Sequence record: OR352942.1
Reading direction: 5' to 3' (one strand)
Source of the DNA: Escherichia phage AV112
DNA length: 64,000 bases
Shown: positions 2,751 through 24,032 of the stretch, one piece after another
How positions within the stretch are numbered: position 1 is the stretch's first letter
How the letters are laid out: each line of letters starts with the position of its first letter
Program-made: the position numbers and the translations under genes
Notes under the pieces: generated by a model
What the model was told of the DNA's origin: nothing
Seen by the model: only the letters and a program-made list of their open reading frames with translations
Database searches by the model: none

Positions 2751-3371
2751 TTAAAGTTGAAGATACCACCCGTTGTAGTTGCTCTTGCGGACGATTTTCT
2801 TTAGATCTTCATGGTCTCCCACGAACTTTATAGAATAAGAGAAGACGTCAGGTGAGGTTTCTTTGACATCTAATATAATAATGCAATCTGCGACTCGATG
2901 GTTCAAGAAAGGCCCTATATTGATTCCATTACCACCCGGATAATCACCACTGTATCCTGTGGTAACAGAAATCCATTTAGAATCTATCTGGTGTGTCTTG
3001 ACTTCTACACGAATTCCACAATACTTGGGATGGGCTAACACGTCCCATGCATACGTGTACGGGTCTTCTACGTCTTCAATACCTTTATTAACATATCCGT
3101 CTAGCCAATTTGCTACTACATACTCTGCAAAGACCGCAACCTTACAACGTCGAACTACATCTTCTTTGTTTTGGTCAGGATTTTGGCTCAGGGAATACCG
3201 AGCAGTGTCAGCAATCTTCACCTTCATTTCACTAGTCAAAAACTCATTCGACAGGATAAATGTCGGAAGATTCTTCAGTCTCAACAGTCCCAAGTTCGTC
3301 TTTACCATAGATACCTCTGATGTGTAGTTCGCCAAAATAAATGCGGTCACCTTCTTCAAGATATTCTGCAT
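2751..3371 (-). CDS. hypothetical protein; true start probably internal (ATG at 3227, about 159 aa) because the first ATG overlaps the upstream ORF by about 128 nt
   Basis: ORF-track ORF; sits where T4 has denB but I see no diagnostic motif. Confidence 0.4.
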   Translation of the reverse strand: MQNILKKVTAFILANYTSEVSMVKTNLGLLRLKNLPTFILSNEFLTSEMKVKIADTARYSLSQNPDQNKEDVVRRCKVAVFAEYVVANWLDGYVNKGIEDVEDPYTYAWDVLAHPKYCGIRVEVKTHQIDSKWISVTTGYSGDYPGGNGINIGPFLNHRVADCIIILDVKETSPDVFSYSIKFVGDHEDLKKIVRKSNYNGWYLQL

Positions 3372-3531
3372 CTACCGGTGGGATTTCAATAACAACTTCG
3401 TCGCATTCTAACCAGCCGTAGTGTGCATCACCAGGATGTTTTACCAATTTAGCGCAATAAACTGATTTACACTTATGATGACCACGAAGATTAGCAATTT
3501 TGGATTCTGATACGTCAAATGGATGAATCAT
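3244..3531 (-). CDS. hypothetical Cys/His-containing protein (about 95 aa)
   Basis: ATG at 3531 with AGGGG Shine-Dalgarno immediately after the rIIB terminator; sequence MIHPFDVSESKIANLRGHHKCKSVYCAKL. Confidence 0.4.
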   Translation of the reverse strand: MIHPFDVSESKIANLRGHHKCKSVYCAKLVKHPGDAHYGWLECDEVVIEIPPVDAEYLEEGDRIYFGELHIRGIYGKDELGTVETEESSDIYPVE

Positions 3532-3545
3532 AATTACCCCTAAAG

Positions 3546-3570
3546 AAAAAAAGGGGACCAAAGTCCCCAA
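3546..3570 (-). terminator. rho-independent terminator downstream of rIIB
   Basis: Minus strand GGGGAC-tttg-GTCCCC followed by TTTTTTT. Confidence 0.6.
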
Positions 3571-3573
3571 TTA

Positions 3574-4521
3574 TTATTCTGCAAATAATTCAGTAACGTC
3601 TGAAATTACTTCATAACGACAAGTACGCATCTTAGCATCACCATAGTCAACTGGGATGGACACAACATCACGTGGATGAACTTTAACCTTAACAACTTTA
3701 TCTGAGCTAGAACCAAAGTAACGAATATATGATTTAGCACAAACATGTAGACCACGGGAACAAGTTTGTGTATCGTCATCGTTAACACGAGTACGAGGCA
3801 TTGAAACAACTTTACCAGGCGAGTTATCAAATGTGCCGCTATAGCAATCTAAATAGTCTTTACGAACTACTTTCCATGCATAGAAATGCCCATCTTCAGT
3901 GATTTCAATATCGTTTGCAACCAAGAAGTCGAATAAACGTTGTACAGCTTTTTCGCTTGGGTTTTCTAACAGGTTTTCAAGGAATGGCAGATAGAATTTA
4001 AAGTCTTCGCCTTTTTCCATGGAATCAATAATACGGTTAACCAGTCCTGAACGAATTTCTATACCTTGATAAAATAAACTACCACCTTCAATAGTAACAT
4101 TACCGTCAACAAACTTACTAATAGCTTTCTTGATGTTAATAAGTTCGACAGCTTTACTAAGGTTTCCTGCGACCAAATTAGCTTTAATTTCTTCAAAATT
4201 TGCATGACTTGATGGGGTCGCATTGTATGCTACGCGTCCTTCAATAATTGAAATAAATTTAGATGACGCGTTCCATACGATTTCTGGACGATGACCGCCG
4301 ATAATAGGTTCATCATTTTCTGGAACTTCTTCGATTACATAAGAGGCATCGTTTGCTTCAGGGACAACGCCTTCTGCTTTAAAATTCTTAACAATCTTAC
4401 GAAGAGTATCTGTTGAAATGTCGAAGTAATCGGCAATTTCTTTACGAGTCCATTTGCCTGATTCAACCAGGCCATAAGCTTCTAACTGTTCTTCTTGGGA
4501 CAAGCATTTAATATTGTACAT
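3574..4521 (-). CDS. rIIB: rIIB protein (315 aa)
   Basis: Length and N-terminus MYNIKCL resemble T4 rIIB; immediately downstream of rIIA as in T4. Confidence 0.7.
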   Translation of the reverse strand: MYNIKCLSQEEQLEAYGLVESGKWTRKEIADYFDISTDTLRKIVKNFKAEGVVPEANDASYVIEEVPENDEPIIGGHRPEIVWNASSKFISIIEGRVAYNATPSSHANFEEIKANLVAGNLSKAVELINIKKAISKFVDGNVTIEGGSLFYQGIEIRSGLVNRIIDSMEKGEDFKFYLPFLENLLENPSEKAVQRLFDFLVANDIEITEDGHFYAWKVVRKDYLDCYSGTFDNSPGKVVSMPRTRVNDDDTQTCSRGLHVCAKSYIRYFGSSSDKVVKVKVHPRDVVSIPVDYGDAKMRTCRYEVISDVTELFAE

Positions 4522-17346: not shown

Positions 17347-17928
17347 CTAAAAATTCAACATTTTCAAATGAATGATTTTGTATAATCGAGATAAAGGGTC
17401 ATATTCTAAGTCTTCAATTTTCACAATCTCAAATCTAGAGATACCTGAGACCATGTACTCTTGTTCAGATTCAATCATATCTAGGACATCGATACGAGTT
17501 TCTTCCATAACATGCTTAGGGTTCTTTCCGGCAAGTACAATGTTAACCATGTTTTGGTAGTAATCAAAAATGAATGGAGCATTCCTGAGACTAAGAATAG
17601 TGTACGTCTGATATTCCCAGCTCCCGGAGAATTGACGAGCTGTACTGAAATCAGTTGTGAACGATGTTACTCGTCCAGGAGACCAATGACATCCAACAGA
17701 AAGAAGGGAAAGACGTTCTACTTCTTCTGGAGTTACACCGCGGTAGAGTTCTACTGGTACTGTAGAAGTCATATGCTTACGAACAAGATGGTCTAATTCA
17801 TAGTGGAAATCCGGGTCTTCCTTAGAATCAGTGCAAGCCCAGAGAATGTTTTGTTCTTGGCGGGTGAATTTGCTATCAATCAGATTTGTTAGGTATTCAC
17901 GTTCTTGAAGTTCAGATTGACATGTCAT
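17347..17928 (-). CDS. modB: ADP-ribosyltransferase (ModB-like), 193 aa
   Basis: ART motifs YRGV, SFTTDFSTARQF and EQEYMVSG; paralogue of modA. Confidence 0.65.
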   Translation of the reverse strand: MTCQSELQEREYLTNLIDSKFTRQEQNILWACTDSKEDPDFHYELDHLVRKHMTSTVPVELYRGVTPEEVERLSLLSVGCHWSPGRVTSFTTDFSTARQFSGSWEYQTYTILSLRNAPFIFDYYQNMVNIVLAGKNPKHVMEETRIDVLDMIESEQEYMVSGISRFEIVKIEDLEYDPLSRLYKIIHLKMLNF

Positions 17929-17984
17929 GATAGACCTCCATTTAAAGATAAGCCTATCATAACACGAGAGGAGGGAATGTAAAC
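17929..17984 (-). promoter_or_regulatory. early promoter cassette upstream of modB
   Basis: Minus strand GTTTAC-N17-TATGAT, GGAGG Shine-Dalgarno. Confidence 0.45.
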
Positions 17985-19472: not shown

Positions 19473-19498
19473 ACAAAAAAAGGAATCCCGAAGGATTC
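19473..19498 (-). terminator. rho-independent terminator downstream of soc
   Basis: Minus strand AGGAATCC-ttcg-GGATTCCT followed by TTTTTTTG. Confidence 0.65.
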
Positions 19499-19508
19499 CT
19501 TAAATTAT

Positions 19509-19745
19509 TTAACCACTTACTGGTGTAGGGGTAAACATTGCAGCATTCTTAGTTTTCCAATCAGCTGCATCAGAAACTACAGTAGAATATGCTGCCTTTT
19601 CTGATGGAAAGATTTGGTAATGAGAATCTGCAATCCGATGTTCGTTTGAATAAATCTCAAACGGCACAGAAACTTCCATACCTTTAACTTCTTTGCCTTC
19701 ACCAGCAGGATGCGTAAAGGTTTTGATGTTTACATAACCACCCAT
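19509..19745 (-). CDS. soc: small outer capsid protein Soc (78 aa)
   Basis: Sequence GYVNIKTF...YQIFPSEKAAYSTV matches my recollection of T4 Soc; preceded by a late promoter. Confidence 0.8.
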   Translation of the reverse strand: MGGYVNIKTFTHPAGEGKEVKGMEVSVPFEIYSNEHRIADSHYQIFPSEKAAYSTVVSDAADWKTKNAAMFTPTPVSG

Positions 19746-19776: not shown

Positions 19777-19784
19777 TATTTATA
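19777..19784 (-). promoter_or_regulatory. T4-type late promoter (TATAAATA) for soc
   Basis: Plus strand tatttata is TATAAATA on the minus strand, about 32 nt upstream of the soc ATG; the only exact match I found in the window. Confidence 0.6.
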
Positions 19785-19790
19785 ACTTAA

Positions 19791-20312
19791 TCAGTAACCA
19801 TTATCCTGGCGTTCAAAGTTGTGTTGGTTTTTCAAGTAGTAAAGTTTAAAGATTTCTTCAGCGGAAAGACCCAGACCTTGGAACATGTTCAGGACAAAGT
19901 GGAGGATATCAATCATCTCGAATTTAATTTCAAGCTGGTCTTCAGGAGACAGTTCATCGATACGACGATTTCGATATTCAGCATGTTGAGCTTTCCAAGG
20001 CTTCCATACAGAGCTAGCGGCTTTTTCACCATTGCTCATACCACCAAGTGAAGTCAACAGTTCACGGAATTCATCATCAATATAATCTTTCTGATTACGC
20101 AGCCAATCAACAACATCGCCAGCAGTGGCTAATTCATCAGGATGTTTGTTATGTTCAGGCTTGTCATTTGCCAGACGAACCTGTAAAGATTTCTGCATAT
20201 CAAGCATTACCTGCAGAGGGTCTTTATCTTCGTGAATCAGAGCATTAAAATAAGCTTCTTCTGCTTTATCAACACCAGAAATAAGTTGTGAACATTCGTT
20301 AAAGTGTGCCAT
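19791..20312 (-). CDS. 56: dCTP pyrophosphatase (dCTPase/dUTPase, MazG-like), about 173 aa
   Basis: Position next to soc; size close to T4 gp56; ATG at 20312 (MAHF) with AAGGAA Shine-Dalgarno, the ORF-track start being an upstream TTG. Confidence 0.75.
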   Translation of the reverse strand: MAHFNECSQLISGVDKAEEAYFNALIHEDKDPLQVMLDMQKSLQVRLANDKPEHNKHPDELATAGDVVDWLRNQKDYIDDEFRELLTSLGGMSNGEKAASSVWKPWKAQHAEYRNRRIDELSPEDQLEIKFEMIDILHFVLNMFQGLGLSAEEIFKLYYLKNQHNFERQDNGY

Positions 20313-20402
20313 TATTTTTCCTTTCAATTCAGTATAAGAGAGTTTAATTCTAACATTAATTTTATAAAGCGTAATAAATAATAAGGTAACTAAGGAGATA
20401 TT

Positions 20403-20600
20403 ATGTTTAAACTTCCATCGTTAATCAACGCTATTAAAGGCAATAAAAAGAAAACTGCTATCGCTGCAATAGTTGTAGGTGGCATTATTTCATGGAACTT
20501 CGGGATTGCGCCATTGTTAGTTGCCCATGGTGTTATGGTTCCTTCTGTTCCATTGGATACTGTAGTTGATTTGGCCTTTGCTATTATAGGGCTTGTCTAA
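20403..20600 (+). CDS. small two-helix membrane protein (65 aa); only convincing plus-strand gene in the window
   Basis: Strong TAAGGAG Shine-Dalgarno 5 nt before ATG at 20403; hydrophobic sequence; stop converges on and overlaps the gene 61 stop. Confidence 0.45.
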   Translation: MFKLPSLINAIKGNKKKTAIAAIVVGGIISWNFGIAPLLVAHGVMVPSVPLDTVVDLAFAIIGLV

Positions 20601-21619
20601 ATCTTAGAATAACGAGATAATCTCATTTTAGCATGCAACCCACTTGAAATATTCTGTTTCATATATTCTAAAATTTCTTGTGGTGTTGCATTTTCTTTCA
20701 TTACCATATCATTCACATCCTTTGATCTCCACGGAGCTCGGTCCCAGAACATGACACGTTCGCCTGCATCAACTAATCGCTTCATGCGAGCTATAGTATC
20801 CGGATGCCTAGGTTCATTATCCATTACCCATACCCGACGTTCTTTAAATGGTACAACATCTAAATCTATTGAGCCGCCTGTAATAGCGATTGCATTGGGT
20901 ATGAATAAACTATCAATAGGGCCTTCCATTACCCAGACGTCTCCTTCCTTAACACGTTCAACACCATAAATTTTTGTTGCAGACTCAAACGCTTTAATAG
21001 TGATATATTTCTGAGGAGCATCTTTACGAAGTGCACGTCCTTGGAATGACTCAGCCTTCCCGTCTTTATTAAAAATAGGAATCACTAAACGTGGTTCGGG
21101 AATCTCTTTTTTATATGTACCGGGTTGAATCTTGTTGACCAATTTAGGCCATTCTAATGTGAACCATAATCTGTTCCATGATTCTTTAGGAATGCATCGA
21201 GACTTAACATATTTCACAATAGGATGCTCTTCAGGCAGCTTGTCCAGACGAGAACAAGACGGCAAAGAATTTATAGTCTTTTTCTCTGGTTCTGGTTTAT
21301 GTTCAGGAACCTTTTCAATCTTTGGTTCCATTCTAGCTTTTTCTTTACGAACTTCCATTAGATATTCGCGATAAAGCTCTTCATCATACTCTTTTAAGTA
21401 TCCGGAAATTGTATTGTGGTATTGACAATTATAGCAATGTACATTACCAGGAGTACCGCCATAATACCATCCGCGAGCTTTCATTGCATCTGTCTGGGAG
21501 TCGCCACAAACTGGACATCGAAACGTTAATTTAAATGTGCTTGAATTATTGATTTGTCTAAAACGAGGTAGGTGAGAAAACGCACGATAAGCAAATTCAT
21601 TATCTATCCATTCAGCCAT
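20597..21619 (-). CDS. 61: DNA primase (340 aa)
   Basis: N-terminal zinc ribbon CPVCGDS...CYNC and Toprim-like core; size of T4 gp61. Confidence 0.85.
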   Translation of the reverse strand: MAEWIDNEFAYRAFSHLPRFRQINNSSTFKLTFRCPVCGDSQTDAMKARGWYYGGTPGNVHCYNCQYHNTISGYLKEYDEELYREYLMEVRKEKARMEPKIEKVPEHKPEPEKKTINSLPSCSRLDKLPEEHPIVKYVKSRCIPKESWNRLWFTLEWPKLVNKIQPGTYKKEIPEPRLVIPIFNKDGKAESFQGRALRKDAPQKYITIKAFESATKIYGVERVKEGDVWVMEGPIDSLFIPNAIAITGGSIDLDVVPFKERRVWVMDNEPRHPDTIARMKRLVDAGERVMFWDRAPWRSKDVNDMVMKENATPQEILEYMKQNISSGLHAKMRLSRYSKI

Positions 21620-22344: not shown

Positions 22345-23004
22345 TTAACCTCGATTCATAAATGCATTAAATATTTGGTCATCAACAGAAATTTCTAATT
22401 CGACTTCAATTGCTTCAGCCTTTTCTTCAGGTGGTAATTCGTATCCACACACTACAATTTTTTCATCGATATCAAAATATACAGAAGCAATATGATTAAT
22501 GTTATTTTCGGTTAAGTCTAAATCAACATCAACATCTTTTTGACCTACACTTAAAGGATAACTAATACGGGTTATTTTATTATCTTTAACAAAGAGTCCA
22601 CCGACATACTCTGTGCTATGTTTGAAGCTTACACGTTTCCGAAATGAAAGATATGATGCATCTTTACCGTGAGCTCGGCTCATAGGACATAATGAATAGC
22701 TAGAATAAGAGATGTCAAATCCTACACCTTCAATATGAGCCAACGTGTCATGATTAAACCAATTATAATCATATGCCAAATCCATTATATTGTAATACGT
22801 GAAAGGCACCGGATTAACATCATACGTTGTACCTTTAAAATCTGCCCAGGCAACGATTTCGTTATCTTTAACAATTACAAAAATTACACCAATATGGTAT
22901 CCATTATTATTTTCGTTCGGCGTTATATTATAACATTGTGCATTAGGAAATTTACCATATTTAAATGGTGCGTTTTTGTGCATGTAATAAATCATATTAT
23001 TCAC
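22345..23004 (-). CDS. hypothetical protein (219 aa)
   Basis: ORF-track ORF. Confidence 0.4.
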   Translation of the reverse strand: MNNMIYYMHKNAPFKYGKFPNAQCYNITPNENNNGYHIGVIFVIVKDNEIVAWADFKGTTYDVNPVPFTYYNIMDLAYDYNWFNHDTLAHIEGVGFDISYSSYSLCPMSRAHGKDASYLSFRKRVSFKHSTEYVGGLFVKDNKITRISYPLSVGQKDVDVDLDLTENNINHIASVYFDIDEKIVVCGYELPPEEKAEAIEVELEISVDDQIFNAFMNRG

Positions 23005-23290
23005 CTGTGATTTCGGTTACGATATCTTTGTTATCGAAATTAGGGTCACAATACAAAACATAATTGTACTGCATGATACCACCAGACTTAAGTTGTTCAA
23101 CAACTTTATTAACCATATTAGGACGGTCTCGTTTAGTGATGTTCATAATATCAGAGAAGATTTGTTGTTCAACATCTTCTTGATTTGCAGTCATTGACCA
23201 CTCACAGAGGTCTTTATCATAACCTGCCGTAACTGGAGCTGGTGCGCATGATACTGCAAGTAAGATTGCTGCCAATGATAACTTTTTCAT
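22997..23290 (-). CDS. sp: Spackle-like periplasmic protein with signal peptide/lipobox (97 aa)
   Basis: Signal peptide MKKLSLAAILLAVSC; motifs AGYDKDLCEWSMT and QYNYVLYCD as I recall for T4 Sp; 97 aa; position between 61 and 41. Confidence 0.55.
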   Translation of the reverse strand: MKKLSLAAILLAVSCAPAPVTAGYDKDLCEWSMTANQEDVEQQIFSDIMNITKRDRPNMVNKVVEQLKSGGIMQYNYVLYCDPNFDNKDIVTEITGE

Positions 23291-23353: not shown

Positions 23354-23602
23354 TTATTCTTTTTCGCGAATAATAATTACTTGTTGAGGCTGCTGGGCAG
23401 ATTTCTTTTCGGCAACGATAGACCAAATTAAAGTTCCAATCCAACCAATCATCGTCCAGTTAAAGAGTAAAGATATAAAGAAGATTGCTGTTGTGCTTTT
23501 TGTGCCACGAATAAGTGCGATTACCCAAGGCAACATGTAAATGATGATTGAACCAATACCTGCGATTAAAACTGCTACTGAACTAGCTACGAATAATTCC
23601 AT
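23354..23602 (-). CDS. small membrane protein (82 aa, two or three TM helices)
   Basis: Hydrophobic sequence. Confidence 0.4.
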   Translation of the reverse strand: MELFVASSVAVLIAGIGSIIIYMLPWVIALIRGTKSTTAIFFISLLFNWTMIGWIGTLIWSIVAEKKSAQQPQQVIIIREKE

Positions 23603-23663: not shown

Positions 23664-24032
23664 TTAATTAAATTTGTTTAAACGTTCAATACACTGGACG
23701 TAGTTATTTGCGATTTGTTTCTGGGTGGGCTCTTTACCAGTTGTTTCAACATAGCGAATGAATGCGATTTCAGTAGCCTGTAGACAATGTTCTTTAACGC
23801 GTTGTTCTTTTGACAATGCTACAGTATCAGAGTCACGATAACGTTGAGCATGGGCATCAGCTTGAATCATTCGATTACCTACAGTAACCGGGTCTTCCAC
23901 TTCAACTTTAGGTTGGTCATACTGTTTAACATTCGGATTGTAAATCAGTTGGCCAACGTTATTAGGGATAAAGCCATGGGCACCACATCCGGTTAATCCA
24001 AATACCATTGCTAAAGCGATTAATTTTTTCAT
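23664..24032 (-). CDS. putative lipoprotein (122 aa)
   Basis: Signal peptide with lipobox LTGC. Confidence 0.45.
   Translation of the reverse strand: MKKLIALAMVFGLTGCGAHGFIPNNVGQLIYNPNVKQYDQPKVEVEDPVTVGNRMIQADAHAQRYRDSDTVALSKEQRVKEHCLQATEIAFIRYVETTGKEPTQKQIANNYVQCIERLNKFN

Follow-up and report, generated by a model that had tools for sequence, protein, structure and literature searches.

Why should a single 65-codon reading frame run against all of its annotated neighbours in the early-gene block of a T4-like phage, and what could its product do? The question arises in a 64,000-nt stretch of DNA from Escherichia phage AV112 (OR352942.1), here called the window, in which the small ORF extends on the plus strand from an ATG at 20403-20405 to a TAA at 20598-20600. 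A sequence-only reading of the window had described a lone plus-strand gene for a two-helix hydrophobic membrane protein, convergent with the primase gene 61 and overlapping its stop codon, and had proposed that the convergent overlap reflects either transcriptional interference or a late-expressed function.

Gene setting, conservation and distribution

The 2-kb stretch around the ORF is 100% identical to Escherichia phage AV113 (OR352943.1), which belongs to the Straboviridae, Tevenvirinae, Mosigvirus (RB69 group), and 97.6-98.7% identical to the other listed Mosigvirus genomes. The gene is already known, as a hypothetical protein called by automatic annotators in hundreds of genomes, among them the AV113 record; its name in RB69 is RB69ORF029w, and in RB51/RB32 it is RB32ORF030w. 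The features of the locus are collected in Table 1. Most points of the initial description were borne out. The ORF is the only one of the 55 annotated CDS in positions 1-32000 of the window to lie on the plus strand, and the genes further upstream of gene 61 (sp, imm, dmd and gene 41) are all on the minus strand. Its ATG is the earliest possible start, with only three in-frame codons open 5' of it, and both the 65-residue length and the TAAGGAG Shine-Dalgarno (SD) sequence at 5-nt spacing can be read directly in the DNA. The stop codon overlaps the TAG of gene 61 (20597-20599, minus strand), so that the two genes have four nucleotides in common. The absence of a terminator from this convergent overlap was likewise confirmed: no intrinsic-terminator-like site was found on the plus strand just 3' of the ORF, the nearest weak candidate being at 23682, and the number of plus-strand terminator candidates is at chance level. 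The HX01 RefSeq record shows several further plus-strand "hypothetical proteins" of 25-37 codons (2263-2460 and 3605-3682 of locus L002), which are unannotated in AV113 and RB69 and look like over-calls.

Table 1. Coordinates of the small ORF, its putative signals and neighbouring genes in the window
Feature	Position	Strand	Remarks
CDS, 65 aa	20403..20600	+	WPK34765.1; orthologue of RB69ORF029w; phrog_2024
Shine-Dalgarno TAAGGAG	20391..20397	+	5-nt spacer (atatt) to ATG
Late-promoter-like -10 box AATAAATA	20373..20380	+	A(-13) variant of T4 consensus TATAAATA
MotA-type middle promoter of gene 56	20340..20380	-	aCGCTTTA, 12-nt spacer, TAGAAT; back to back with the late box
Four-nt tail-to-tail overlap CTAA	20597..20600	.	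ORF TAA (+) / gene 61 TAG (-)
Gene 61, DNA primase, convergent neighbour	20597..21619	-	phrog_47, E=1e-101; annotation
Gene 56, dCTP pyrophosphatase (dCTPase), divergent neighbour	19791..20312	-	context
soc	19509-19745	-	gene order soc, gene 56, gene 61
sp	22997-23290	-	
imm	23354-23602	-	

Conservation of the ORF and of its SD in related phages, which the sequence-only reading had named as a check on the gene, was evident. The tblastn search found the ORF in 692 phage records, with single-piece coverage of at least 80% in 685 of them. The ATG was kept at all 17 loci, each time with GGAG or GGAGG 3-6 nt before it, and the products share 22-55% amino-acid identity across at least nine lineages. 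The phrog_2024 profile ("unknown function") was matched over its full length, residues 1-65 of 65 positions, with E=2.6e-27, and the homologues from T4, PM2, PKO111, Entb_45, P0104 and P0105 also match it. Codon alignments gave pairwise dN/dS values of 0.12-0.48, and the differences per codon position followed the order third > first >> second (43/30/12 between AV113 and T4), a pattern to be expected when selection acts on the protein encoded in this frame, and not when it acts on the other strand or on an RNA. These results show the ORF to be a genuine, conserved protein-coding gene. Disruption in close relatives, which had been named as evidence against a gene, was encountered in Tequatrovirus a48, where a 1-nt deletion in the run encoding KGNKK leaves a 41-codon remnant (2400-2608 of locus L007), but the frame is intact in about 99% of the records. 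The a48 deletion is either a sequencing error or a sign that the gene is dispensable, and given this truncation the gene may be dispensable in the laboratory.

Synteny was compared in Mosigvirus AV113, HX01 and RB69, Tequatrovirus T4 and others, Gaprivervirus CJ20, vB_YenM_P8, Jiaodavirus PKO111, Kanagawavirus Entb_45, Gelderlandvirus STML-198 and Mosugukvirus PM2. In each of them the ORF stands in the interval from gene 56 (in T4, dam) to gene 61 and is read in the direction opposite to these two neighbours, so that its position and orientation are kept in at least nine Tevenvirinae lineages; further genera yield tblastn matches. A profile search of 1.84 billion representative proteins gave eight matches, all of them family members or fragments, indicating a family without distant characterised relatives. 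Three of the eight (P0104, P0105 and P0107) are clear distant relatives, and these led to phages of Klebsiella, Citrobacter, Salmonella, Enterobacter, Pectobacterium and others, all with phrog_2024 members. A positional counterpart was absent from five Straboviridae outside the Tevenvirinae, namely Aeromonas phage avDM3, Acinetobacter phage Melin, Proteus phage Pm5461, RB16 and Krischvirus ELT3. Four of these have a same-strand gene (gene 56 in RB16) within about 20 nt after gene 61, and avDM3 has a gap of about 120 nt, too short for such an ORF. Because it is missing at this locus in all five, the gene looks like a Tevenvirinae-specific acquisition.

Other insertions were seen in the same interval. 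In vB_YenM_P8 the small ORF is separated from gene 61 by an inserted homing-endonuclease gene (2786-3553 of locus L005), and in T4 dam, with segF nearby, lies on the other side of the small ORF. The 56-61 interval seems especially prone to insertions.

In the T4 reference record (NC_000866.4), a gap of 309 nt (17626-17934) from the end of dam (17625) to the start of gene 61 (17935) is left without annotation. Here the plus strand encodes a homologue of 66 codons (17738-17938; 3239-3439 of locus L003), which shares 55% identity with the AV113 protein, has the SD AAAGGAGG and an upstream box GATAAATA, and overlaps gene 61 stop to stop in the sequence TTAA. The homologue is called in OZ209023.1, a T4-strain annotation based on Pyrodigal and PHROG. 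A literature search found no paper on the function of this gene or on its absence from the T4 annotation.

A late-promoter-like box upstream of the gene

A box of the type NATAAATA was found 13-22 nt before the ATG at 17 of 17 loci, covering nine lineages, in upstream DNA that is otherwise unalignable. The form present in AV113, AATAAATA, also occurs in RB69, HX01, PKO111 and one Tequatrovirus group, while T4 and PM2 have GATAAATA, the phages vB_YenM_P8, CJ20, VR25 and VR26 have CATAAATA, and STML-198 has ATTAAATA. The perfect consensus TATAAATA was seen only in Entb_45, where the box overlaps the start codon of the neighbouring gene. In T4, the late promoter TATAAATA at -13 to -6 is perfect in 32 of 50 cases, and A(-13) is the commonest variant, with nine (PMC2988020); T at -13 is poorly conserved in the T4 relatives (PMC1524935). 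Departures from the consensus at -13 (G, C or A) or at -12/-11 (TT) may make for a weaker box. A T4-type late promoter needs no -35 element, and no sigma-70-like site was found on the plus strand in the 900 nt upstream of the ORF.

Elsewhere in the window the motif is scarce. For ATAAATA, 29.5 +/- 5.4 copies would be expected and 8 are present; for TATAAATA, 7.4 would be expected and 2 are present, a depletion consistent with selection against stray late promoters in the early-gene block. The polarity of the ORF bears on its timing as well, since the early and middle transcripts of T4 are all counterclockwise and only late ones use either polarity (PMC2988020); counterclockwise in T4 corresponds to the minus strand of the window, and the ORF has the clockwise (plus) polarity. 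From the conservation of the box at a fixed distance to the ATG, the depletion of the motif elsewhere, the restriction of plus-strand transcripts of T4 to the late class and the lack of a sigma-70-like site, we infer late, gp55-dependent transcription, which would start at about 20385-20387 and give a leader of about 17 nt. Of the two proposals made initially, late expression is thus the one that the sequence supports well. Nolan et al. 2006 predicted 31 late promoters in RB69, none of them before RB69ORF029w.

The MotA-type middle promoter of gene 56 corresponds to Pm:16038 of RB69 (Nolan et al. 2006 supplement). The late box of AV113, read as its reverse complement, abuts the minus-strand MotA box, and part of the conservation of the box in this phage could serve the MotA promoter. 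That ATAAATA is conserved solely for the gene 56 promoter was considered and rejected, as its distance to the ATG is kept in lineages where the minus-strand context differs entirely, Entb_45 being one example. The gene 56 promoter region of T4 is annotated as the replication origin oriA, and the 90-nt spacer at the present locus may be related to an origin. Two further elements were noted at the neighbouring soc gene: a perfect TATAAATA at 19777-19784 on the minus strand, 31 nt before the soc start, which is presumably the soc late promoter, and a 9-bp hairpin 3' of soc (19480-19501), which scores as a terminator on both strands.

Predicted membrane topology and proposed explanation

The product is strongly hydrophobic (GRAVY 1.2), and all five of its lysine or arginine residues stand before residue 18 (K3, K12 and K15-17), leaving residues 18-65 without a positive charge. 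An AlphaFold2 model built with a 15-sequence alignment (mean pLDDT 80.8) shows three helices (3-13, 15-41 and 51-61) and, at 42-50, a loop rich in proline. For RB69ORF029w, one transmembrane (TM) helix at 21-41 was predicted by TMHMM, and SignalP was negative (Nolan et al. 2006 supplement). A crude Hessa-scale sum gave -2.7 to +5.6 kcal/mol for the best window of 19-23 residues (approximately 18-41); for the 20-24 residues that follow the conserved glycine towards the C-terminus it gave +4 to +12 kcal/mol. By this crude estimate the C-terminal tail would lack the hydrophobicity or the length to cross the membrane, and only the segment at about 18-41 appears both long and hydrophobic enough to do so. 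The initial description as a two-helix hydrophobic protein was therefore right as to hydrophobicity, but one membrane-spanning helix is likely, not two. In the most likely topology, the chain would cross the membrane once, at about 18-41, from an N-terminus inside to a short tail, proline-rich and hydrophobic, on the periplasmic face; a tight hairpin is conceivable but less likely.

The layout of the protein comprises the basic N-terminus, the predicted TM segment with W31-N32-F33 and P37, then G43, a proline-rich turn with P47 and P50, D52, and a short hydrophobic C-terminal helix. Among 12 diverse members, W31, N32, P37, G43 and P47 are invariant or nearly so, position 33 is aromatic (F or Y), and the position of D52 is acidic in all 12, giving the pattern W-N-[FY]-x3-P-x5-G-x3-P-x3-[LIM]-[DE]. 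These positions fall in the tail and the outer half of the helix, and the sequence is free to vary in the inner half and at the N-terminus. Searches of Pfam and NCBIfam and of PDB sequences up to E=10 gave no match. When the AlphaFold2 model was compared with viral structures by Foldseek, the only results were a family member and noise.

Taken as a whole, we consider it probable that this is a real, Tevenvirinae-specific gene that is transcribed late and whose inner-membrane product takes part in an interaction on the periplasmic side. According to the sequence and the rules of T4 transcription, RNA polymerase modified by gp55, gp33 and gp45 would start at the A(-13) late promoter AATAAATA and produce a plus-strand mRNA with a short leader. 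The strong TAAGGAG carried by this mRNA would drive translation of the 65-residue protein, which is predicted to enter the inner membrane in such a way that the lysine-rich N-terminus stays in the cytoplasm and the tail of about 22 residues lies at the periplasmic face. Conservation concentrated in the tail and the outer half of the helix suggests that the protein makes a specific contact on the periplasmic side and does not damage the membrane in a generic way. Our best guess is that the protein would play an accessory part in some late process at the envelope, for example the timing or inhibition of lysis or an assembly step at the membrane. That the gene alone departs from the strand polarity of an early-gene block of more than 30 kb, and that it is restricted to Tevenvirinae, points to a lineage-specific late envelope function.

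T4 is among the most thoroughly annotated genomes, yet its reference record omits this conserved and probably late gene, and T4 studies that rely on the annotation (proteomics, knock-down screens, expression tables) will not detect it. No tryptic site follows residue 17. Decades of T4 genetics and proteomics could thus have missed the gene, as it is unannotated and without a tryptic site past that residue. It is conceivable, if rather unlikely, that T4 carries here an overlooked late gene whose single-pass product fills a gap in the account of one of the classic late envelope processes; lysis timing or inhibition, membrane-associated assembly of the head or baseplate, and protection of the envelope of the infected cell could be such processes.

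Alternative readings and known systems

Two alternatives would leave the protein without importance. The ORF is short and is missing from the curated RefSeq annotation of T4, as might be expected of a chance frame without product in an AT-rich intergenic spacer, but the conservation over at least nine lineages, the coding-type substitutions, the frames intact in about 99% of records and the retention of SD and start codon effectively refute this reading, leaving it a negligible chance. The other alternative is an antisense or interference element, in which a late plus-strand RNA would collide or pair with gene 61 transcripts and shut off primase late in infection, the ORF being incidental. [quoted passage not shown] Against this, purifying selection acts on the amino acids in this frame, the strong SD is kept everywhere, and the geometry of the ORF and gene 61 varies: the overlap is 4 nt in AV113, T4, Entb_45 and STML-198 and 21 nt in PM2, but PKO111 has an 18-nt gap with a GC-rich UUCG hairpin, CJ20 has a 118-nt gap, and vB_YenM_P8 has its homing-endonuclease gene in between. 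Because of this variation, interference does not appear to be a selected feature, and we hold it very unlikely that the ORF is incidental to it; the conserved object is the protein and not the collision geometry. The initial proposal of transcriptional interference is accordingly not upheld as a conserved feature, and the late transcript of AV113 and T4, which would run antisense into gene 61, is treated as a by-product, from which some interference could incidentally result. The PKO111 hairpin, AAGGGGCTTCGGCCCCTT (1993-2010 of locus L018), has a UUCG loop and no T-run after it, and was left unscored by the terminator scan.

Two other alternatives accept the protein and assign it a definite fate. 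As a more specific version of the preferred explanation, it could be a holin-like or lysis-timing protein that forms or regulates membrane lesions, together with or acting on the T holin, the RI/RIII antiholins or the spanins. Probable late expression, small size and membrane location all fit such a protein; the UniRef entry A0A482MZV5 (phage OE5505) is named "Holin"; and the TM helix of the AV113 and T4 proteins, rich in G, A, S and T and marginally hydrophobic, recalls signal-anchor-release (SAR) domains such as that of T4 RI. The name of A0A482MZV5 is, however, an unsupported automatic label, and no similarity to holin families was detected, the best match to a PHROG "holin" having E=0.27 with one distant member. 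The charges are N-terminal, and the charged C-terminal cytoplasmic tail typical of holins is lacking; the helix of the vB_YenM_P8 type is strongly hydrophobic and not SAR-like; and it is general knowledge that T4 lysis is already explained by the lysis genes t, e, pseT.3/pseT.2, rI and rIII. A holin-like role is for these reasons regarded as doubtful. The protein could also be processed, its N-terminal 43 residues being a long signal peptide cut after A41-H42-G43 to release a hydrophobic periplasmic peptide of 22 residues. In 12 of 12 diverse members the residue at -3 is A, S or T and that at -1 is G, P37 stands a few residues before the site, and basic residues precede the hydrophobic core; but this core, with about 24 residues, is typical of an anchor and not of a cleaved signal, and the SignalP result for RB69ORF029w was negative (Nolan et al. 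2006 supplement), so that such processing seems highly improbable.

The preferred reading, that of a late inner-membrane protein with a periplasmic interaction, can be set beside several known systems. The antiholin RI of T4 is likewise small and late (the latter probably true of the ORF), with a weakly hydrophobic membrane segment at the N-terminus and its C-terminal part on the periplasmic side. However, no sequence similarity between the two was detected, RI has a folded periplasmic domain where the ORF product has a hydrophobic tail of about 22 residues, and the helix of the ORF product is strongly hydrophobic in some lineages. The one- and two-TMD holins gp17.5 of T7 and S21 68 of phage 21 are also membrane proteins of 60-70 aa that are expressed late, as the ORF probably is, but the ORF product has the reverse charge arrangement (a basic N-terminus and an uncharged C-terminus), its gene is not beside an endolysin gene, and it matches no holin family.

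Imm and Sp of T4 are small envelope-associated proteins of the same phages, encoded 2.4-3 kb away at the present locus. Unlike the ORF, their genes are on the minus (early/middle) strand, and no homology to the ORF product was found; Sp has a cleaved signal peptide. In this phage imm lies directly beside sp, and the T4 stretch examined has no imm gene next to sp. Next to imm and sp is an ORF of 122 aa (23664-24032, minus strand) with a lipoprotein-type signal (…LTGC…), which is labelled "immunity" in AV113 and "iduronate sulfatase" in HX01. With RB69ORF029w and phrog_2024 the correspondence is complete: they belong to the same family as the ORF product, and in RB69 the gene has the same position and strand, without any difference.
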